Below, one piece after another: positions 1,691 to 62,701 of a stretch of 64,000 nt of DNA. Under the pieces are notes generated by a model, which saw only the letters and a program-made list of their open reading frames with translations, did not search any database and was not told where the DNA came from. The stretch lies in the IMG/VR virus record IMGVR_UViG_2695420859_000012; one strand, 5' to 3'. This DNA comes from a virus. Lineage: Duplodnaviria > Heunggongvirae > Uroviricota > Caudoviricetes. Within the stretch, counting starts at the first letter, position 1, and every line of letters begins with the position of its first letter. Both the position numbers and the translations under genes were made by a program.

Positions 1691-4030
1691 TTAATCTTCT
1701 AATTCATCTGTCGGTGATGTCTTCTCGCGCCTGTCATCTATTGCCTGTAACGCAGCAATGATTTCAGCTAATGGCTTCTCCCGGTACATCTCGACGATCT
1801 GTGATTTGGTGTATTTCTTCTCGCCAATTTCCACACGCCCGCTGGCGCTCTTGGGCAGGTATCCTTCCTCCAGCATGTATTCAACCAGAGACTCGACGAC
1901 GTCCAGCCCGCGAGTCGGGTCGAAGTAGAATTTCCATGAGCATTTGCCAAACGGAGGCGCGACTTTGTTTTTAATGCACTCGGCGCCAACGTCCTGTCCG
2001 ATCTTCTCTTTGCCATCCTTCATGACGGATGCACCCAGACGGATGCGCACCGACGCGTAGAACTTCGGAGAGTCGCCACCCGGAGACGTAGTCGGATCGC
2101 CAAACATCACACCAATTTTGGTACGCACCTGGTTCAAGAAGATGATGCACGCGTTGTACTTACGCGCCCAAAGCGCCAGAGTAGGGAAGTTCGCACTTGT
2201 CGCGCGCGCCAGCGCCGTGTTGTCGTTCATGTTCAGCTGATCTTTGTCTTTCGCAGTGCCTTCTGCCATCTTGTCGAACTTCTCAGCCTTCGAGTTCGGA
2301 ACCATCGACGCCAGAGAGTCGGCTACGATGCAGATAGGGGCTGTTTCCGGAATAAGCTCTTCGTCGCGCACCAGCTTGAGGATTGTGCCGATCAGCTCTA
2401 CGGAGTCTTCGAAGGTATCCGGCTGTTTGTAGACCCACTGACCGTCATCCTCATCTGCGTTCAGGCCATTGGCTACAGCCAGGCCAACGTCAAAACTGTT
2501 TTCATGATCGAGGAATACCGCCAGACCATCTTGTTTTTGAGCGGAGATCATCGCTGCTGTTGCAAGGAATGTGTTGTGGCTGATAATCCCGTTAGACCAG
2601 AAAGAGTGTGTTTCCGGCATCGCTACGTCGAACGTTGGTGCTTCACCTTCCTCAATAGCCACGACTTCGTCGTAGAACAAGTTAGAGCCAATTACCGCTG
2701 CCAGTTGTGCAAACAGATGCTCGTTAAAACGATTCTTTCTGCCAATGAAGGAGACATAGATTTCTCGCAGTTTGTCTATTCCGACACGATCGCCGCGGCC
2801 AATAACGTGGTCTACCAGAGCGTAGTCTTCACGGGTGGTCTTGGTGAGCGACTCGTAGAGTGATTTCACTAAGCCGCTGATGTGCGGAACATAGCCTGAG
2901 TAAGTGCGGTCAAAACCAATGTCCCGTTTGGTTGCCACTGATAAACGTGCCGGAGATTCGAAACCAATCGTTGACAGAAAAAGGTCGTAATTAGAGCCAC
3001 TGAATGACAGCCGGTAATATGTATTTTCATAACCCGCGACGTGTTTTTCAGAGATAGTTGACGTAATCCCCAGATTCAGGAGCATGAGGCGAATTTGCTG
3101 TAGCAGCAGCCCACTCGCGCTCACAACCTCAATGCAGCGACCATCATTGACGTGGCATTCCAGCTCAAAGTAGCCGCGAAGGAATGCAATTTGAGCCTCG
3201 CTATTGGCGCGACGCACACTCAACGGAACCTGCTTGCCAGCAGCTTTCTCATACTCCAGACCATATTCTTTAAAAAGCAGCGAACGCACCTCTTTGCTAA
3301 ACAGCACATGGTCTTCCGAGCCGTTATGTTTTCTCGTAACTGGCATCTTGTCTGATACCAGCGAAATGAGGCGGTAGTACTCATCCTTGATGAAAGGATC
3401 TGTGTTAGAAAAATTCACTGAATTTTCAGAGGCGACGTATCCGTCAGCAATTAAATAGCCCATCAGTTTTGCGATATTGGCATCCAGGTGCTGATCGCCG
3501 AATTGATGTGTGCCAACCATTGAAGGAATCGTGTCGCCTACACTGATTTTTTCAGCATGTCGCCAGACGACATTACCTAAGTCGTCAACCACACGGATTG
3601 GGTGACGGAACGTAGCCTCGATATAACCGCCTGATGCCAGCTTAATACGCTTGAATTTGCGACGGTTGTTCCATGTCAGGTGTGAGGTCTTCTCTATCAC
3701 GCCATTTTCATTGATGAGTCCAACGTTATGCTCTACATCGCGAGTAGTGCATGTCGCTTTGTACCCTTCAATCTCAAACAACTCTTTCACTGTTACCATT
3801 CCACGCTCCGTCAGCAGCATGGTGTCTGCGGTAACACATTTCCCTGCACTTGGAGGACCGAATACTTCGACGATACGACCACATGGGAAGCCGCCATCGT
3901 AACGACCAGAAATAGCTTTGTTTAACGGTGGAAAGCCTGTATCAATCCAATGAGTTACTTTCTGAATTTCGTCGTTGCTACCGATTTTCTTTTTCAGAGC
4001 AAGTGCCAGTGCGGATTTTCCTTTTGCCAT
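1691..4030 (-). CDS. recA: RecA-family recombinase interrupted by an intein in the Walker A P-loop
   Basis: N-extein ends GRIVEVFGPPSAGK, C-extein resumes TFLATAAM... and contains IIFLNQVRTKIGVMFGDPTTSPGGDSPKFYASVRIRL, closely matching bacterial RecA as recalled; exteins total 357 aa. Confidence 0.85.
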   Translation of the reverse strand: MAKGKSALALALKKKIGSNDEIQKVTHWIDTGFPPLNKAISGRYDGGFPCGRIVEVFGPPSAGKCVTADTMLLTERGMVTVKELFEIEGYKATCTTRDVEHNVGLINENGVIEKTSHLTWNNRRKFKRIKLASGGYIEATFRHPIRVVDDLGNVVWRHAEKISVGDTIPSMVGTHQFGDQHLDANIAKLMGYLIADGYVASENSVNFSNTDPFIKDEYYRLISLVSDKMPVTRKHNGSEDHVLFSKEVRSLLFKEYGLEYEKAAGKQVPLSVRRANSEAQIAFLRGYFELECHVNDGRCIEVVSASGLLLQQIRLMLLNLGITSTISEKHVAGYENTYYRLSFSGSNYDLFLSTIGFESPARLSVATKRDIGFDRTYSGYVPHISGLVKSLYESLTKTTREDYALVDHVIGRGDRVGIDKLREIYVSFIGRKNRFNEHLFAQLAAVIGSNLFYDEVVAIEEGEAPTFDVAMPETHSFWSNGIISHNTFLATAAMISAQKQDGLAVFLDHENSFDVGLAVANGLNADEDDGQWVYKQPDTFEDSVELIGTILKLVRDEELIPETAPICIVADSLASMVPNSKAEKFDKMAEGTAKDKDQLNMNDNTALARATSANFPTLALWARKYNACIIFLNQVRTKIGVMFGDPTTSPGGDSPKFYASVRIRLGASVMKDGKEKIGQDVGAECIKNKVAPPFGKCSWKFYFDPTRGLDVVESLVEYMLEEGYLPKSASGRVEIGEKKYTKSQIVEMYREKPLAEIIAALQAIDDRREKTSPTDELED
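2573..3838 (-). mobile_element. Intein (about 422 aa) with LAGLIDADG homing-endonuclease domain, inside the recA P-loop
   Basis: Begins with Cys immediately after GPPSAGK and ends ...IISHN followed by Thr; LAGLIDADG-type blocks LMGYLIADGYV and FLRGYFELECHVNDG. Confidence 0.8.
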
Positions 4031-28940: not shown

Positions 28941-29681
28941 TTAATTAGATAGGGGATCAATAAACCGCCGTGCTTCTTCCAGTTCTTCTGGAAAGTGGGC
29001 GGAAATAAGGCGCTCTGGAACGATTTCCATTAGCCAGATAGCGGAGAAAATTGCGCGTATGCGCTTGCTGCGGGGGATGGTGCGTAAACGCTCCAGAATC
29101 CACTCAAAATAGCTTTCCTGGATCGGGTTGAACTGCATGTCTCCCATATGCTTAAAGCTAACTAGAGAGTCATCCAGACGGGTTGTTGCGCGTCTGGCTA
29201 ATTTCTCTTCGAATATCTCAACCAGCTCTGGCTGCCATAAATGCTGTGGGCGCGGCAGCTTGTCCCACAGCCGTCGTGCAGCTGCGGAAAGAACGGTGGA
29301 GATAAAGTAGTCGTATGAGCAGCAATAGCGGTCAGCAAACTGGCGTGCTTTCCATAGAGACGTTTTATTGGCAGTCGACAACTCCTGATAAGGCAGGCGT
29401 TTTAACCCGGTGGTGAACGGAGCTGTTTCAAAGTGTTCGCGACCGTGCGTCAGCATGATATTTGAGTACTGACGTTTGTATGCCTCCGTAAAAAGACAGG
29501 TGGCCATGAGAGGATGCATGTCGCGGTAATCAAACCACTTCGTCTCGAAGAGTTCAGCCTCGTCTTTACAGCGCGACAAACCAATGTTTTCAGCGACCCA
29601 CTTGTCCATAACAGCGGTATTCCACTCTGTCATGAAGTCGTACTGGTCGTTGTCGATGGTATCGAAAAAGATTTGGCTCAT
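28941..29681 (-). CDS. Hypothetical protein, first gene of helicase/primase operon
   Basis: Start moved to ATG at 29679-29681 (AGGTGAG RBS; track ORF starts at GTG 29690); no recognisable motifs. Confidence 0.4.
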   Translation of the reverse strand: MSQIFFDTIDNDQYDFMTEWNTAVMDKWVAENIGLSRCKDEAELFETKWFDYRDMHPLMATCLFTEAYKRQYSNIMLTHGREHFETAPFTTGLKRLPYQELSTANKTSLWKARQFADRYCCSYDYFISTVLSAAARRLWDKLPRPQHLWQPELVEIFEEKLARRATTRLDDSLVSFKHMGDMQFNPIQESYFEWILERLRTIPRSKRIRAIFSAIWLMEIVPERLISAHFPEELEEARRFIDPLSN

Positions 29682-29797
29682 GTGGCTCACCTGGTAGGTA
29701 GTTACTTACTTATCACAATGAGCGGATGATAGCGACTGGTGGCAGTTTTTGGAAGTGGAAACGGAAGGGAGTTGTTCTGGTGGTGTCTTTTAAAAGA

Positions 29798-29852
29798 CCT
29801 GCTTCCGTATATATTTAATAAGTTACTTATTATTTATATATACAGAAGCAGG
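29798..29852. repeat. 55-bp palindromic element, copy 1
   Basis: cctgcttccgtatatatttaataagttacttattatttatatatacagaagcagg; identical to 62647-62701. Confidence 0.9.
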
Positions 29853-29963
29853 CATAACTTGTCGTCTTAGACGCCCAGAAGCTCTACACTTTGAGCCTGT
29901 TAAATTGATTAAAAACTTATGTGTAAAATAGAACGCATTAGTCAGTAGCAAAGAGATGCAATA

Positions 29964-30731
29964 ATGGACGATTTATCGGTATACGCGAGATCATTGGATA
30001 AGGCTAAATACTATGTTTACTGTCTCTATGATACAGAAGACAAGATGAAAAGACCGTTTTACATAGGAAAAGGCAAATCGACTCGTTGTCTCGATCACAT
30101 CAAGTATCCCGATGACTCTCCCAAATCCATGCGGATCAAAGAACTTTTGGCTAATAAAAAATTAGGCATAGATATACTTCGTCATGGTATGGATGAAACC
30201 ACAGCCAAACTTGTTGAGGCGACATGCATCGACCTTATGGGGGTCGGAGAGCTTACGAATAAGGTACGAGGAAGTGGTTCCATGATGGGCAGAATATCAC
30301 TGGACGCCTACCATCACTTAGTGCTGCAAGAGGAAACTGAAATTGCTCCTGAGCACGCCGGTCTTGCCTTCCTGCTAAACAGCACCTACAAGTCAGGAAT
30401 GTCCGCTCTGGCATTATATGAGGCTACGCGTGGCGTATGGGCAAAGGTTCCAAGAGACGAGAATCTCAAATATGCCTACGCTACATATGGTGGGCTGATA
30501 ATGGAAGTTTATCAGATTGAATGCTGGGTCAAAGCCGGTTCTCAGCAGTACTTTACAAGGGATATAGCTCTTGGCCCCGACACAAAACGTTATGAATTTG
30601 TTGGCAGAATAGCCGATGAGCATATTAGAAAACTGTATGTAGGCAAATTAATCAAGAAGCCACCAAGCTACGGTAGCCCTTTTGTGAAGGTTGGGGTGGT
30701 TAGGACTGAACATAGTGTTAGCGCGGCATAA
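29964..30731 (+). CDS. GIY-YIG nuclease-domain protein (possible free-standing homing endonuclease or cargo nuclease)
   Basis: N-terminal YYVYCLYD...PFYIGKGKSTR; about 150-aa unknown C-terminal region. Confidence 0.6.
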   Translation: MDDLSVYARSLDKAKYYVYCLYDTEDKMKRPFYIGKGKSTRCLDHIKYPDDSPKSMRIKELLANKKLGIDILRHGMDETTAKLVEATCIDLMGVGELTNKVRGSGSMMGRISLDAYHHLVLQEETEIAPEHAGLAFLLNSTYKSGMSALALYEATRGVWAKVPRDENLKYAYATYGGLIMEVYQIECWVKAGSQQYFTRDIALGPDTKRYEFVGRIADEHIRKLYVGKLIKKPPSYGSPFVKVGVVRTEHSVSAA

Positions 30732-30749
30732 AGCTGACACTGTAGTTAT

Positions 30750-30786
30750 GCATTGGCGCAATGTACGCGCCAATGCATGATTTTTA
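30750..30786. terminator. Bidirectional intrinsic terminator between GIY-YIG gene and parG-like gene
   Basis: gcattggcgc-aatgtac-gcgccaatgc followed by atgattttta. Confidence 0.7.
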
Positions 30787-31143
30787 ACCTTTCTTCATCA
30801 ACTCTCGTTTGATTTCATCGGTACGCATCGTGACATCGGCAGCGGTGATCGCCTCATTCAATTTCACGATGTCCTCGATTTCCTGCGGTGACTTCTCTGC
30901 CAGATGGAAAATGGCTGCTCGAATCACGTCAGAACGAGTGAACTTCTCGAAGCGAGGGATGAACTTCATCATCTCCAGCAGTTCGAAGTATTCGTCCTCC
31001 AGTGACATTGTGCGGCTTTTAATTTTCTCTTTGCCACGAGTCGGGCGTCCCTGTGGTCTGACTGGTTGGCGCAAAGGAGTTGTGTTCTTAGCCGGTGCAT
31101 CAGGCTCTTTGCGCTTTGCTAGGTCACCCATTTTCATGGACAT
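30784..31143 (-). CDS. Small partition-operon partner protein (ParG/ParB-like)
   Basis: Immediately downstream of parA (ATGA overlap); basic N-terminal tail. Confidence 0.5.
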   Translation of the reverse strand: MSMKMGDLAKRKEPDAPAKNTTPLRQPVRPQGRPTRGKEKIKSRTMSLEDEYFELLEMMKFIPRFEKFTRSDVIRAAIFHLAEKSPQEIEDIVKLNEAITAADVTMRTDEIKRELMKKG

Positions 31144-31811: not shown

Positions 31812-31959
31812 TGGAGAGTTCCCTTTGCGTATATAATTATCGTCTGAAACAACTTGTTTTCTTATATGTGATATAGCCTAAATGCCTACGGCTGTGGTGT
31901 AAAGGTTAAATGGTAGGTGCTGCCTTAGAATTTTTAGGCGAGAATCAATGGCTGTTAAC

Positions 31960-31990
31960 AAAAAAGGCGACCAAAGTCGCCTTATTTTTA
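31960..31990. terminator. Intrinsic terminator
   Basis: aaggcgac-caaa-gtcgcctt followed by atttttaa. Confidence 0.65.
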
Positions 31991-32740
31991 ATCTTTTAGG
32001 TATAAACCTACTGGAGTTCTTGTTTTGCGGGAGATGATAAGTACGATAAATTTCTGAACGTTAACTTGCACTTTGTTTGGGAGCCAAGAGCTTAACTCTG
32101 CATCAAGCAACAATCCTCTGTTCCACGGCAAAAATCCGGTTTCTTTCCCCATCCCGTACTCGCCTAACACATCCTCGAACGTTTCTGTTTTGGCATTGTA
32201 TATACGCACATCGCCGGTTCGCATGAGAGGCCCTGCCCAGATCTTAGCACCAGGAATGGTTTGTGTATCGTCGCAGACTAAATGCTCATACCAATGAAGA
32301 AGAAAGAGATAGGTACGGTGACACAATCCTCGCTGACGACGCTCTCTGACAGTTTCGACACCGGCTACCTGGTAACATTCGATCTCATTACCGTCTTCAA
32401 CAAAACTATATTCACGCAGAGCTATCCTACCAGCGATCGTATTTTTGTTTTCGTCCAGAAGCCCGGACTGGAGCACCTCTTTGATAATCTCTTCTTCAGG
32501 GGCATCTTCATCCGCTCGATCTAAGATGAATTCGCTCAGGTCGCCTTGGTCGCGCGCACCTACAAGTTCCATAGAGACATACAGGCAAATGTCATCTTCT
32601 GGTTCAATGATTTCAATTTCTGAGATTTTATAGAGGGAGGCTTCATTGATAAGAAAGCCAAAACGAACAACACGAGTCTCCCCTTTATGAGGAAACTCGC
32701 TTAGATCTTTTGAATATGCGCTATCTAGTGTAGGAGCCAT
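31988..32740 (-). CDS. Hypothetical protein
   Basis: 250 aa, overlaps upstream ORF. Confidence 0.4.
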   Translation of the reverse strand: MAPTLDSAYSKDLSEFPHKGETRVVRFGFLINEASLYKISEIEIIEPEDDICLYVSMELVGARDQGDLSEFILDRADEDAPEEEIIKEVLQSGLLDENKNTIAGRIALREYSFVEDGNEIECYQVAGVETVRERRQRGLCHRTYLFLLHWYEHLVCDDTQTIPGAKIWAGPLMRTGDVRIYNAKTETFEDVLGEYGMGKETGFLPWNRGLLLDAELSSWLPNKVQVNVQKFIVLIISRKTRTPVGLYLKD

Positions 32741-33108
32741 TTTGTAGCAGAATCATCAGCCTTAACCGTGCTGACAATGCTACCATGATTGCGTAAGAAG
32801 CGGCGAATAGAATGTTCAATAACCTCCGAAAAAGCCTCGATAAAACGAGACAGCTCAGGGTACTGTTTAGCTGGCTTGACTACAAAACGAACACGACCAT
32901 TCAGGTAAATTGCTTCAGCTAATGGCTTCACGCTTGCACCAGCGCGCTCAACATCGTCTTTGAAGGTAACGATGAAGCGTGAGTCTTCCGGTTCAATAGC
33001 GTCATTATTGAGCTTACGTACTTCAAGCTTGTGCTGATTCAGCACATGAGTCTCGATAATACTCGTGCAATCGCGAATAGTTTGTATAGAACGTTTCTCG
33101 TTCAGCAT
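32725..33108 (-). CDS. Hypothetical protein
   Basis: 127-aa ORF. Confidence 0.4.
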   Translation of the reverse strand: MLNEKRSIQTIRDCTSIIETHVLNQHKLEVRKLNNDAIEPEDSRFIVTFKDDVERAGASVKPLAEAIYLNGRVRFVVKPAKQYPELSRFIEAFSEVIEHSIRRFLRNHGSIVSTVKADDSATKWLLH

Positions 33109-33332
33109 GTGTCCACCTTAGCCGTTAACACAAGTGTCATTGCGGCACCCCTCTCGGGGTTGAAGGCTACGAGGATGCGTAGCCTGTATGTGCCCACTTA
33201 CGTGGATGCCTAATAAATCTACATCAAATTACTAAATGATTCAACATGAGCTTGAGTGAACAGGCGTGTATATGAGTGAAGATGCCATCTTTAGGATAAA
33301 AGGTAAACTGAGACCACTCATCAATCATCGAC

Positions 33333-36008: not shown

Positions 36009-39000
36009 TTATTCTTTAGGTGAATTTAACTTCGTTTCAAGCTCCTCAACCCTTTTGGTCAATTGCTGAATATGATGAATGAGTGGTACAACCAAACGCT
36101 CATACATCACTCCTTCAGCGACCATACCATTTGAGGAAATATCTTCTGGAGAATCATTATTTGTTGGTTCACGCCAATGGACATATTGCGGGGCAATCTC
36201 ACCAACCTCTTCAGCAATAAGGCCGTAATACCCCCAATCCTTTCGGTCACCTCGACAAATTGAACGATACCAAACAGGTCTTAATGACAAAAGTTCATCA
36301 GCATATCGATCTTGTAATGTTTCAATATCCTTTTTATAGCGCCTTGAAGAGGTTGAACGCCAAACTGTATTGATACCTGGGTTTGGATCAATGTACATAT
36401 TGGCACCGCTAGTAGTTGTGCCAATATCCCATATAGCAAACCCTCCACTACCGCCTGATTTGACAACCAGTGTTTCAGCAATAATATCCAGGTTGCCACT
36501 ATAGCCTGTCAGTGATGATCTGCTTGCATAGGAACTTAGAAGGTTTGTTACCTCTGTTTTCGTGTAAGCATTAAGGTTAGCCGCAGTCAAAGTTATATCG
36601 GCAGAGCCATCAAACGCCACACCAGCAATTTTCCTTGCTGTCTGCAATTTTGTGGCGGTTGCGGCATTACCAGTAGTGTTCTGATTACCAGTTGTATTCA
36701 CACCAGGGATTGAATCCTTAGCGGTATATACCTGCGCCCACGCTGACCATGCCGCACCTGTGTTATCTCTTCGTGAGCGAATGAAAACTGGCGCATGTGC
36801 ACCGCTCGTACCACTCCAGCCAATAAGCAACTCTCCCTCACCAGCAGCACTCGCACCTTTCATGTGCAATACGTTGCCATACATGGTCGGGTAGCTATTG
36901 TTGTACGCCTCGTACATTTGAATGCCAGCAGTGCCTTGAGTAGAGCCGCTTAACGCCGTAACTCGGCCACGAGATACCAATGTATTAATGTTGATATCGC
37001 CTGAGCCATCAAACTTAACACCATTGATGTTTCTCGCTGTTTGCAACTTCGTAGCTGTTGAAGCATTACCGTTCAAACTACCATTTACGCCACCAGTCAC
37101 ATTTAGTCCATTACCAATTGATACAGCACCGCTGGTATTATTAATTGTAATAGGTCGCAAACCGTTCCATGAACCTAATGTGTCTCCTGATGCTGTTAGC
37201 ATGAAATATGTGTTCGATCCATCATTACGGATAAAGAACCCAAAGCTACCGTAAGCAATGCGGAAACCATTTGCATATTTTGAAATGATCTCGCCAGAAG
37301 ATGTCAAACCTCCAGATAATGTACCACCGGTAAGAGGTAATGCACCGACATCAGAGGCTGTTGGTTTGTTTTTCGTGTTATATACTCTTCGCCATCCCGG
37401 AGAATAATCTGTGCCATTAAATACATAGATAAACTCCGCATTAGTGAGAGCACCAGAGACACTCGTCGTTGTGGCCGTTGTTATACGGATCGTATAATTG
37501 TTTGAGCTACTACCGTTATTAAATACCTCTATAACAGCTCCTGCCAATGGAATAACGCCACAACCAGTTTCACTATTTGGTATGGTTGCACTATTGGCAT
37601 AGGCCCACGCACATCGAGCAATCCATGACTTTGTGTTAAATGCTCCATTATTTTGCAATAACGTCACTAACTGTGCTGTTGTTATTGCTCCGCCATTACT
37701 TCCTGTAGTTAACCAACCAGTAGGAGATGCCGGGCAACCTATATTTGCTGGCGACAAGGAAATATTTGCCGAGCCGTCAAACGACACCCCATTGATAGTA
37801 CGCGCAGTCTGCAACTTCGTAGCAGTAGCCGCGTTGCCCGTTGTATTCTGATTACCAGTCGTATTAACACCTGGCAAATTAATATTCGCAGTACCATCAA
37901 AGCTCACGCCGCCGATAGTTCTTGCCGTCTGAAGTTTTGTAGCAGTTGCAGCATTACCAGTGGTGTTCTGATTACCCGTAGTATTTACACCTGGAAGGTT
38001 GATATTTGCAGAACCGTCGAAACCAACTCCACCGATAGATCTTGCCGTCTGCAATTTCGTTGCTGTACTTGCATTACCATTTAATGTTCCGGTGATCCCA
38101 CCAGTAACAGACAACGGACCTGAAACTGTTCCTCCGGTTGTTGGCAGTGCTCCAATATCTAACGGCGTCGGTTTCTGATGTGTGCTATACATCGTATAAA
38201 CAACACCATCGGTAACGCTGGAAGGCTTACTAGCTGAATATGTTGGCGATGTATAAATAGAAACTGTCGCATTTGCAGTACAATCCCAATGGATATTTAC
38301 ACGAGTCGCATAATTGCCAATCTCAACGTAAATATCATATGTATCGCCGGATGTGTTGATCCAGGCGAAATTCGTTAATCCGACAGCTGTACGCTTCCAC
38401 AAAGCACCTGTAATCCCTTTGGGGTTTCCATTGCCTGCTCGTAGAACCAGTTCTGAAATGCCTGCCTGATGTGGGGAGCCGACGTTGTAACCAGCGCCAC
38501 CAATCAATGCGATGTAAACGATGGAACTCGCTTGTGGCATGGTAACCGTAGCCAGTTTGAACCACCCTGCCCCGCCAGAGAAAGACATCGTTACTGAATT
38601 TAAAGTACCAATATCTTTCGGCGTTAATGTGATATCCGCAGTCAGTGCTTTACCGTTAACTTTTCGGTTAGATGGCACCCTGCTATTCGCATTGTCATTG
38701 GCTGCTTTAACTGCTTTTGGCGTTGCGGCCAGCGATTCACTGGTGCTGTCGACAGCACTGCTAAGTTTCACAACACCTTTAGTTGTAAGGCTTGCGTCTT
38801 CCATCGCAACTGCACCGGCAATCTCTTCAGCACGATCAGCAGCAGCTTCCGCACGGGTCGCAGCGGATTCAGCAGCAGTTTTGCTCTGAGATGCTGCCGT
38901 CGCACTGCCTGCCGCCTCTGTTGCTTTCGTGGATGCCGTCGTGGCGCTGCCCTTCGCTGCTGACGCCTGTCTGGTCGCCTCATCTTTTGAAGCAGACGCA

Positions 39001-40258: not shown

Positions 40259-43200
40259 TTACAGAAGGCCAATTCTTACTCGTAGGACGTTGTTATCGTC
40301 ATAAACGTCAATCCGCTGACCATTTATGACCAGTCGCCCATTACCCCCGCTATTACCGTTGATCTCAAGCGTTCCATTTTTGCCGAACCGCCATCCAGAT
40401 CTACCGCTAACAAAATTGGTAGATTGCAGATCGCCTACTTTTGCATTGGTGATTGTGCCATCCTTGATATACGCACCATTCATATAGGCGATACTGTTTT
40501 CGATAACAAATGGCGTGGTGATCTTCCCGTTAACAGAGTTGACCAAACCAAACCTGTCAGCCTGCACCAAAAACTGAGAAAGGCCAGTGGTGTCGATACC
40601 AAGCGCAATACCAGCAACATACTTCTGCCCTCCGCTCGTTGAAGTTTCCATTTTCAACGTCCACGCGGTTGACACTTTTTTGTTGGTATCAGCAATAGCT
40701 GTTGCCTGCTGTTGAATTGTCGCGGTATTTCCATCCACCTCTGCTTTCAGAGTATCGATTCGCCCACTCAGAGCATTATCTGCCTGCGTTCTCGCTGTCG
40801 TTTCAGTTGTTACCGCCGCGGAAATGTTGGCTGCCGTTTGAGACTCTAAGTTTGTGATTTGAGTCGCCAATGCAGCATCTTGCTCTGTACGCGTTTTCGT
40901 TTCGGTTGCTACAGCCGCTTTAATATCCTCTTTGTATTGAGAGGTCAGCTTGGTGATCTGAGACGACAACGCCGAGTCAGCATCAGTTCGAGCCTGCGTT
41001 TCAACTGCAACGGCCGCACTAATATCTTTCGCTGTCTGTGCTTTTAAACTTGAAACCTCTTTTGTTAAAGCGGTATCACCATCAGCACGAGCCGTTGTTT
41101 CTCTGGCAAGAGATGCCTCGAGATCATTAGCTTTTGCTGTAAGAGACGAAATCTGAGTGGACAATGCACTATCGGCATCAGTCCTTGCCTTTGTCTCTAC
41201 AGCAACCGCTGCGGCAATATCAGTTCCGGTTTGTGCTCGCAGGCTGTTAATTTCTCGTGAGAGCGCCTGGTCAGCACTTGCTCTGGCCTCCTGCTCCTGA
41301 GTGATGGCAGCGGATATATCACCGTCAACCTTTGACTGAAGCTGGTTTATTTGTTTGGCTAACGCAGAGTCCCCGCTTGCTCGGGCCTCCTGCTCACTAC
41401 GTATTGCAGCAGAAATATCATCATCAACCTTTGCCTGAAGTTGGGTGATCTGGCTTGCCAGAGCCGAATCTTCCGTTGCTCGGGCTTCTTGCTCTTCCTT
41501 AATAGCTGCGACGATATCGTTGCTTACTTTCGACTCAAGCTGAGTGATCTGTGTCGTCAGAGCTTCATCGGCAGATGTGCGAGCCTCCTGCTCTGTACTA
41601 ATCGCCGCGCTGATATCTCCTTCAAACTTAGATTGCAGCTGAGTGACACGCTTTGCCAACGCTTCATCGCCATCGGCACGAGCGGTGGACTCTTCCAGAA
41701 TACTGGCCTTAATGTCTTCGCCAATTTCTACGCGAATTTCCTCAACCTTCGTGGCCATTGCAGACATATCATCAGCAAAGGTTTTCTGTGTTGTTGCGAT
41801 CTTCGCGTTATTGACCATCTGCTTGTGCTGGTCTTCATCTTGACGAAGAGCTAGGTCAATATTTGTTTTGGCTAACGCCTCAATGTTCGTAGTCAGTTCT
41901 GCACTGGCACGATCGACCTCTGCAACCGTCTTTTTCATTTCTTCAACGGCAGCGGAGCTTTCCTCTACCGTTGACTGCAACACTTCCAGTTGTTTAGCGT
42001 TTGCAGCATCGCCTTCAACACGAGCCTCGCTTTCCTTAGCAATAAGAGCCGCCGCTTCATCTCTTGCAGCCTTTATTGCCTCGACTGTATTAGCGAGAGC
42101 TTTATCGTGTTCAGATACGGTGTTTTCGATTTCAACAATTGCAGCATCAGTAGCATCAATTTTTTCAAACGCTTCATTGACCTTGTCGATCGTTGCCGAA
42201 ACCTCACCTTTAAGCTCGGTTTGTGCGTTCTCCAAAGCATCGCTACGCTCGTTGAATTTTATTTCAAAACCCGCGAGGTTATCGCTGAACTGCTTATCTA
42301 ATTCAGCTATATCTTCCTTAACGTCGTTTACCGACCCCTCCAAAGATTCGACGCTCTGGTTGATATGCTCATTTAACTCGTCAACTGCTTCTTGAGAGGC
42401 TTTGCTGTTGATGTCCTCAAGCAGAGCCTGACCAAGCTCGGAAGATGTAATTTTGCCAGCCAGGAACGACAGTACATCGCGAGTTGTCGCCTCTGTACCC
42501 AAGTTTGAGTTCGGAGGGCTTAACATACCTCGCTTGTTCGATGCTCGAACCCAGTAATACCACGTTTCGCTATCCCCAAGGCCAGCATGTGTAAAGGTGG
42601 TGCTTGCAGACTCTGCGATCAGTTTCGCCGTATCCAGATTGTTGGTCTGGGATGCGTAAACATTAATGTGATCAAGGTCTACCGAATCTGGATTAACCCA
42701 ATTCAGTATCACATTACGATAGTCTCCAACGGCCGTTAATGACGTTGGTGCATCCGGCGGTGTCATTGTGCCCAGCACCTGATAAACGGTACTGATAATT
42801 TCTGTTTTTTTACCGTTGAATGAAACCGCATACAGTTGGAAGTCGTAGCGTCCATTCTCCGCGACATTAACGATTTCGTATTGTTCTTCGGTTACACGCG
42901 CCGATTGCCAGTTCGATACATTGTTTTCATCAGAACGTCGCCAACTGATCCAATACTCTGGAGATTTCCCTTCCCATGTTGCAGTCAGTTTTACTGACAG
43001 GTTGCCCGGGCTTGAGAGGTAAGTCCCTTCAGTGATTTGCAAATTAGACGGCTTGGAGTAAGTCGGGTCCAATACCGTCGTATTCTGCGGGATAAGCGTT
43101 GCACCATTGTCGATCGCCTCATATTTAGACGGATTGTTTTCAACAGCGGTGATGTCAAAGCTACCCGACGTTTCCCCCTGAGCGATGTTAACGATGCGAA

Positions 43201-62646: not shown

Positions 62647-62701
62647 CCTGCTTCCGTATATATTTAATAAGTTACTTATTATTTATATATACAGAAGCAG
62701 G
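62647..62701. repeat. 55-bp palindromic element, copy 2
   Basis: Identical to 29798-29852; between terS start and the 88-aa gene. Confidence 0.9.

Follow-up and report, generated by a model that had tools for sequence, protein, structure and literature searches.

A GIY-YIG gene in a cargo slot of an SSU5-like phage-plasmid is predicted to encode a CMoRE-family, modification-dependent defence nuclease

What is the role of a lone nuclease gene that sits at a module junction of a phage genome and points against both of its neighbours? We asked this of a gene in IMG/VR record IMGVR_UViG_2695420859_000012, a 64,000-nucleotide stretch of Caudoviricetes DNA (here called the window, meaning the whole stretch analysed). 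The first-pass annotation, made from the letters alone, had described a GIY-YIG nuclease with an uncharacterised C-terminal domain and left its function between a homing endonuclease and a defence/anti-defence nuclease. From homology and gene context, we predict with a probability of roughly 80% that the product belongs to the modification-dependent defence nucleases of the CMoRE family and that an SSU5-like phage-plasmid carries the gene as anti-phage cargo.

The 2026 characterisation of PD-T4-3, under the name CMoRE, described a single-protein type IV restriction endonuclease. It binds DNA containing 5-hydroxymethylcytosine (5hmC) or glucosyl-5hmC, cleaves it, and protects E. coli against T2, T4 and T6 through direct defence; the enzymes came from E. 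coli O157:H7 and APEC O1 (PDB 9U75 and 9U7U) (PMC12923530). The system had first been found in ECOR68 by functional selection, and independent work has shown that it is active in its native host, a clinical E. coli.

The window protein was matched by the PADLOC PD-T4-3 model PDLC04031 over residues 11-231 (profile positions 11-238 of 256; E-value, E, 1.3e-23; 81.9 bits). In a search of PDB sequences, its sole matches were the CMoRE entries 9u7u/9u7z and 9u75/9u8d (E 2e-15, residues 12-230). Identity to CMoRE is about 32%, and the alignment pairs residues 10-232 with CMoRE 10-240. Both halves of the protein share this homology: a full-length profile of its subfamily reached CMoRE at E 4.8e-22, the N-terminal profile alone at 7.5e-8 and the C-terminal profile alone at 7e-8 (PDB-size scaling), and a single C-terminal sequence at 2e-4. 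Alignment of the subfamily with the canonical CMoRE clade by hhalign gave a probability of 99.8% (E 9.7e-28, 213 columns). Among 37 subfamily and 37 canonical sequences, two discrete clades were found; identity was 50% or more inside each and 24-33% across the two. Judged from these alignments, the window protein falls in a clade that is sister to CMoRE, outside the experimentally studied clade.

The gene has the single-gene, two-domain architecture of about 250-260 amino acids (type I), laid out as follows.

29964-30731, plus strand: CMoRE/PD-T4-3-like gene, 255 amino acids
29964-30245, plus strand: N-terminal GIYxY-YIG nuclease domain, residues 1-94 (PF22945; Y17, Y19, Y33, R41, H45, E85)
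30099-30134, plus strand: loop after H45, residues 46-57, IKYPDDSPKSMR, equivalent of the CMoRE acidic autoinhibitory loop
30246-30281, plus strand: inter-domain linker, residues 95-106, modelled at low confidence
30282-30704, plus strand: C-terminal domain, residues 107-247, homologous to the CMoRE modification-sensing domain and PUA-like in appearance

The open reading frame listing agrees with the first-pass annotation on coordinates, plus strand, length and ATG start, and the start codon is further backed by subfamily homologues that begin in the same alignment column. The GIY-YIG motif is likewise present (YYVYCLYD...PFYIGKGK at the N terminus). In the GIY-YIG profile search, which had been named beforehand as one check that might refute the assignment, the protein passed: with a cutoff of 27 bits, Pfam PF22945 (LEM-3-like GIY-YIG) scored 30.1 bits (E 5.5e-7). 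A search of NCBIfam gave no match, and PHROGs lists the family as "unknown function". The protein has the three-tyrosine GIYxY-YIG motif of CMoRE and the catalytic arginine and glutamate of the GIY-YIG active site, so that CMoRE Y17/Y19/Y31/R39/E93 correspond to Y17/Y19/Y33/R41/E85 in the window protein. These five residues, H45, and N99, which lies just past the nuclease domain within the linker, are invariant in all sampled members of both clades.

An AlphaFold model of the protein (predicted local distance difference test, pLDDT, 82.5; predicted template modelling score 0.77) contains two domains joined by a linker, residues 95-106, with pLDDT below 50; the linker of CMoRE likewise has no electron density in crystals (PMC12923530). 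The C-terminal half, residues ~107-247, forms a separately folded domain. Searching with this model in Foldseek, we obtained CMoRE as the top four matches (probability 1.00) with a low global TM-score, probably because the domains are oriented differently. The structure and profile comparison that had been proposed for the C-terminal domain thus led to the CMoRE sensing domain, and the term "uncharacterised" does not hold, as this domain was structurally characterised in 2026 (PMC12923530). Such a sensor is not the site-specific DNA-binding module that a homing endonuclease would carry, and a Pfam search of the 255-residue protein for zinc finger, NUMOD and helix-turn-helix modules found no match.

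A nuclease joined to a modified-base reader without a cognate methyltransferase is the hallmark of type IV enzymes. The domain homology points to such a pair, and no methyltransferase was found in the cassette described below or in its flanks, where the neighbours are replication and partition genes.

The position of the gene gives a second line of evidence. As first annotated, it lies at a module junction, with the primase, DnaB-like helicase and phrog_2500 genes to the left, all on the minus strand, and the parA operon to the right; the adjoining phrog_2500 and phrog_5111 genes are both on the minus strand, opposite to it. In alignments with PhiR41_1, Cyrano and SSU5, backbone homology stops at 29852/29853 and resumes at about 30784, at the phrog_5111 stop codon. 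The features of the junction are listed below.

28941-29690, minus strand: phrog_2500 gene, 249 amino acids, left conserved flank, with which the leftward helicase-primase operon begins
29798-29852, no strand assigned: 55-bp AT-rich imperfect palindrome (CCTGCTTC...GAAGCAGG), backbone at the left edge of the cargo slot
29853-30783, plus strand: cargo cassette, 931 bp, occupying the variable slot that separates the replication module from the partition module
29853-29963, plus strand: cassette leader, presumed promoter and ribosome-binding region
30744-30784, plus strand: intrinsic terminator
30784-31143, minus strand: phrog_5111 gene, 119 amino acids, right conserved flank, its start overlapping the parA stop codon

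The leader sequence is absent from Cyrano and SSU5. The terminator consists of a 16-bp stem with a 12-bp GC-rich core and a T-run, and abuts the convergent phrog_5111 stop codon. A terminator scan missed this hairpin; folding revealed it clearly (-25.1 kcal/mol, z -4.7, with none of 200 shuffles as stable). We regard the terminator as cassette-borne, because it too is missing from Cyrano and SSU5.

In relatives, at least four unrelated occupants, in either orientation, fill the same slot. Cyrano has a minus-strand DUF2971 gene (PADLOC PDC-S31), listed among the morons transcribed in lysogens (PMC9928086). SSU5 and Klebsiella pJN2-26 have a DUF2971 gene and two unknown genes, an E. coli plasmid has a 564-amino-acid KAP-NTPase/PDC-S49 gene, and Shigella sonnei p38 (NZ_CP099775.1) has a plus-strand gene of 350 amino acids (1978-3030 of the extracted locus). 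The PADLOC scores of the alternatives are E 3e-41 for DUF2971/PDC-S31 and E 2e-22 for KAP NTPase/PDC-S49; the p38 gene has no Pfam or PADLOC match and is, by position, a candidate new defence gene. In the Salmonella plasmid CP053410, the slot is a natural empty site of about 30 bp. Slot sizes in a spread sample of about 734 related plasmids were ~34, 821, 931, 1237, 1755 and ~2000 bp. We consider the slot to be a cargo slot and probably a defence slot, the defence label being inferred, as two alternative occupants are candidate systems.

The empty site, together with a gene that stands alone in an intergenic slot of phage DNA, is also what might be expected of a GIY-YIG homing endonuclease that cuts the empty site in related phage-plasmids and is copied in by repair. 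However, homing would give simple presence or absence at the target, whereas here the empty site coexists with unrelated genes on either strand, as is typical of a cargo hotspot.

We then consider the replicon and the distribution of the cassette. The 3 kb around the gene are 98.5-100% identical to SSU5-like phage-plasmids of E. coli (CMS-2020a, PhiR41_1 and many plasmids of ~110 kb), and the parA side is 80-87% identical to Salmonella phage SSU5 and Klebsiella phage-plasmids; this similarity identifies the window as an SSU5-like phage-plasmid of E. coli. Of the ~734 related SSU5-like plasmids, 136 (PLSDB; 134 from Escherichia) have the whole 931-bp cassette, 98-100% identical in sequence. About 241 Escherichia plasmids carry the slot flanks, and 134 have the cassette. 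It was also found in 107 of 5426 complete E. coli genomes, plasmid-borne in all and chromosomal in none. The contexts examined among these plasmids and genomes keep the same neighbours.

Apparent non-syntenic copies on IncF/IncHI plasmids of 52-214 kb turned out to be cointegrates or remnants bounded by insertion sequences (IS), which keep the phrog_5111/parA neighbours, and no further copies were found elsewhere. Two large IncF plasmids, pCUVM3.1 and NZ_CP107722.1, hold IS3-, IS30- and IS26-bounded fragments of the cassette plus the partition neighbour, which are debris of cointegration between phage-plasmid and plasmid. Relatives of the gene at non-syntenic positions, one half of a refuting condition named in the first-pass annotation, do exist in other genera: in Salmonella and Providencia, subfamily members with 50-79% identity lie singly on the chromosome amid housekeeping genes, again unlike the distribution of a homing gene. 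The canonical E. coli CMoRE gene is itself cargo at a prophage end, beside an EcoRII restriction-modification system, and DefenseFinder scans already report PD-T4-3 on SSU5-group phage-plasmids of E. coli/Shigella, with at least 44 entries.

Taken together, these findings suggest the following mode of action. The C-terminal domain would recognise a base that is hypermodified in the DNA of an incoming phage; on grounds of homology, this would most likely be the 5-hydroxymethyl- or glucosyl-hydroxymethyl-cytosine of T-even phages. Cutting of the modified phage DNA would then fall to the N-terminal GIYxY-YIG domain, through Y17, Y19, Y33, R41 and E85. The DNA of the host and of the phage-plasmid, being unmodified, would therefore be spared and no methyltransferase would be needed. 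With its own leader and terminator in a replaceable slot, the cassette would be expressed in the plasmid state and would protect both the lysogen and the phage-plasmid itself from superinfecting virulent phages. A specific 5hmC/glucosyl-5hmC target is the weaker part of this proposal, to which we incline only slightly by analogy with CMoRE, and an oligomeric state like that of CMoRE is presumed.

Several observations weigh against the prediction. First, the clade of the window protein is just 24-33% identical to the tested CMoRE proteins. Second, one hallmark of the CMoRE family, an inserted autoinhibitory loop of negative charge that lies between helices 2 and 3, is not seen: the loop after H45 is 5 residues shorter than that of CMoRE and has 2 acidic and 3 basic residues, a net charge of +1. 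In CMoRE, this loop is proposed to serve as a safety catch, and its neutralisation made the enzyme toxic and non-specific. Third, CMoRE contacts 5hmC through the Y127 main-chain oxygen, and the aligned residue, Q122, lies in a stretch that is not conserved (G, K or Q within the subfamily). Fourth, of the tetramer-interface residues on which CMoRE function depends, V92 corresponds to V84 (I or V in the subfamily) and L96 to C88, an invariant cysteine in the subfamily where the canonical clade has an invariant leucine. As for the cassette, a simple sigma-70 consensus scan of the leader gave no promoter match, and two alternative slot occupants are just candidate defence genes, with another lacking any annotation.

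Some of these differences, the loop and the variable stretch at Y127 among them, count in favour of a rival of the same family and fold, in which the enzyme has a different or broader target, either another hypermodification or another self/non-self mechanism without the acidic loop. The loop is always 12 residues long with a charge of -2 to +3 throughout the subfamily, compared with 13-17 residues and -1 to -4 in canonical CMoRE. The sensing domain differs from that of CMoRE by a 4-residue invariant insert and a 7-residue deletion; TYKSGMS is its subfamily-specific invariant insert. Further, the 48%-identical Capnocytophaga homologue PD-T4-3Capno is also modification-dependent and also degrades Mu DNA bearing carbamoylmethyl-adenine, so specificity is plastic in the family. 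On the other hand, a 5hmC contact made through a main-chain atom renders side-chain divergence at the Y127 position little informative, and the CMoRE authors ascribe the acidic loop to "most" members only (PMC12923530). We rate a different or broader target as a minority possibility, and CMoRE-type defence as the preferred reading.

The sensing domain has the look of PUA-like readers. A bolder proposal, which we consider doubtful, would combine two ideas: that the clade, its acidic loop lost and its sensing domain remodelled, is a functionally distinct CMoRE variant, with another hypermodification as target or another control of the nuclease, and that the sensing domain of CMoRE, for which the published description gives a fold with no relatives, is a base-flipping reader of the PUA-like kind (YTH/EVE/ASCH), though very divergent.

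The other two rivals fare far worse. A housekeeping, repair or anti-defence nuclease (LEM-3/UvrC/Slx1-like), acting in the element's own replication or attacking host or rival DNA, would suit the Pfam/RefSeq name "LEM-3-like GIY-YIG" and the adjoining replication module. We regard it as very improbable, since the Pfam match barely exceeds its cutoff and covers the nuclease core only, the gene is dispensable for replication, being present in only 136 of about 734 SSU5-like elements, and the homology to a proven defence enzyme extends over the full length. Least credible of all is the homing endonuclease of the first-pass annotation, against which context, C-terminal domain and distribution agree and I-TevI scores no better than UvrC (6.4) and T4 EndoII (6.3), with CMoRE far higher (13.9), leaving the defence nuclease as the part of the original proposal that fits.

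The 55-bp repeat near the gene was also re-examined. As first annotated, it is an exact repeat, 29798-29852 being 100% identical to 62647-62701. It is close to the gene, with its right end 111 bp upstream of the ATG, but belongs to the conserved backbone and not to the cassette. The element (self-complementarity 36/55) is a conserved feature of PhiR41_1, Cyrano, SSU5 and the Salmonella plasmid whose slot is empty, and the homology of relatives ends at its right end. A role as cassette part or homing target was rejected, as no relative lacks the element, not even the one whose slot is empty. Both copies stand in front of a leftward operon, about 110-120 bp upstream of its first gene: one precedes the replication operon, and the copy at 62647-62701 stands about 118 bp before a gene of 210 amino acids, followed by the large terminase gene. 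In GenBank, the linear SSU5 record is cut within the second copy, leaving 37 nucleotides at the end of the record and 18 at its start, and the blast match of Cyrano stops at this very point, where its own record terminates. The second copy may be a packaging/cos terminus or a shared operator of the two leftward operons, or the cut may follow a deposit convention; we found nothing usable in the literature on end determination or a cos site for SSU5.

Elsewhere in the window, the phrog_5111 product is probably the partition partner of parA, ParB/ParG-like, because its gene start overlaps the parA stop codon; the "RelE/ParE putative toxin" given in the annotation of phage Cyrano has no Pfam support. 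A second variable region lies to the right of parA at about 31812-33110, and the homology of many relatives ends at about 31918. In the window, it holds a 250-amino-acid phrog_3307 gene and a 127-amino-acid gene, neither with a Pfam or PADLOC match; its counterpart is a KacAT-type toxin-antitoxin pair in Cyrano and a plus-strand gene in pJN2-26. Four tandem 99-nucleotide repeats (41246-41641) and a family of 77-131-nucleotide repeats with 120-nucleotide spacing (36577-38078) probably encode repeated protein motifs of structural (tail/tape-measure) genes.

If the prediction holds, a gene annotated as "hypothetical / LEM-3-like GIY-YIG" becomes a predicted anti-T-even restriction enzyme, carried by about 2% of complete E. 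coli genomes and by roughly one in two E. coli SSU5-type phage-plasmids of PLSDB. This would matter for phage therapy, where T4-like phages are common candidates, given that these phage-plasmids circulate in clinical E. coli/Shigella. Beyond the known carriage of PD-T4-3, the locus is of note for the lack of the safety-catch loop, for a slot with clean limits and for a sensing domain that looks PUA-like. The sister clade offers a natural experiment on the proposed acidic-loop safety catch of CMoRE, and the sharply bounded slot with its empty site is a defined place to seek further defence genes, such as the 350-amino-acid occupant of p38.

Among known systems, CMoRE/PD-T4-3 is the closest. The window protein shares with it a single gene of about 255 amino acids, the nuclease residues (three Tyr, Arg, His, Glu and Asn), a flexible linker, the sensing fold, the lack of a methyltransferase partner and carriage as cargo on a temperate or mobile element. 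Unlike CMoRE/PD-T4-3, it belongs to the other clade, its loop is shorter and not net-negative, L96 is replaced by Cys, and its sensing domain has insertions and deletions. A related class is that of the type IV modification-dependent enzymes that join a nuclease to a PUA-like reader, including the McrB N-terminal domain, VcaM4I and nucleases fused to EVE, YTH, ASCH or SRA domains. The protein differs from homing endonucleases such as I-TevI and Seg in that NUMOD, zinc-finger and helix-turn-helix modules are absent, its C terminus is a modification sensor, and its distribution and context do not fit. The slot resembles the defence/cargo hotspots of temperate phages (P2/P4-type) in its conserved flanks, sharp boundary, mutually exclusive unrelated occupants and empty site and, for one occupant, in lysogenic expression. 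It differs from them in that the host is an SSU5-type phage-plasmid, that the slot lies between replication and partition modules, and that defence activity is proven for one occupant family (CMoRE), two others being PADLOC candidates and the rest unannotated.
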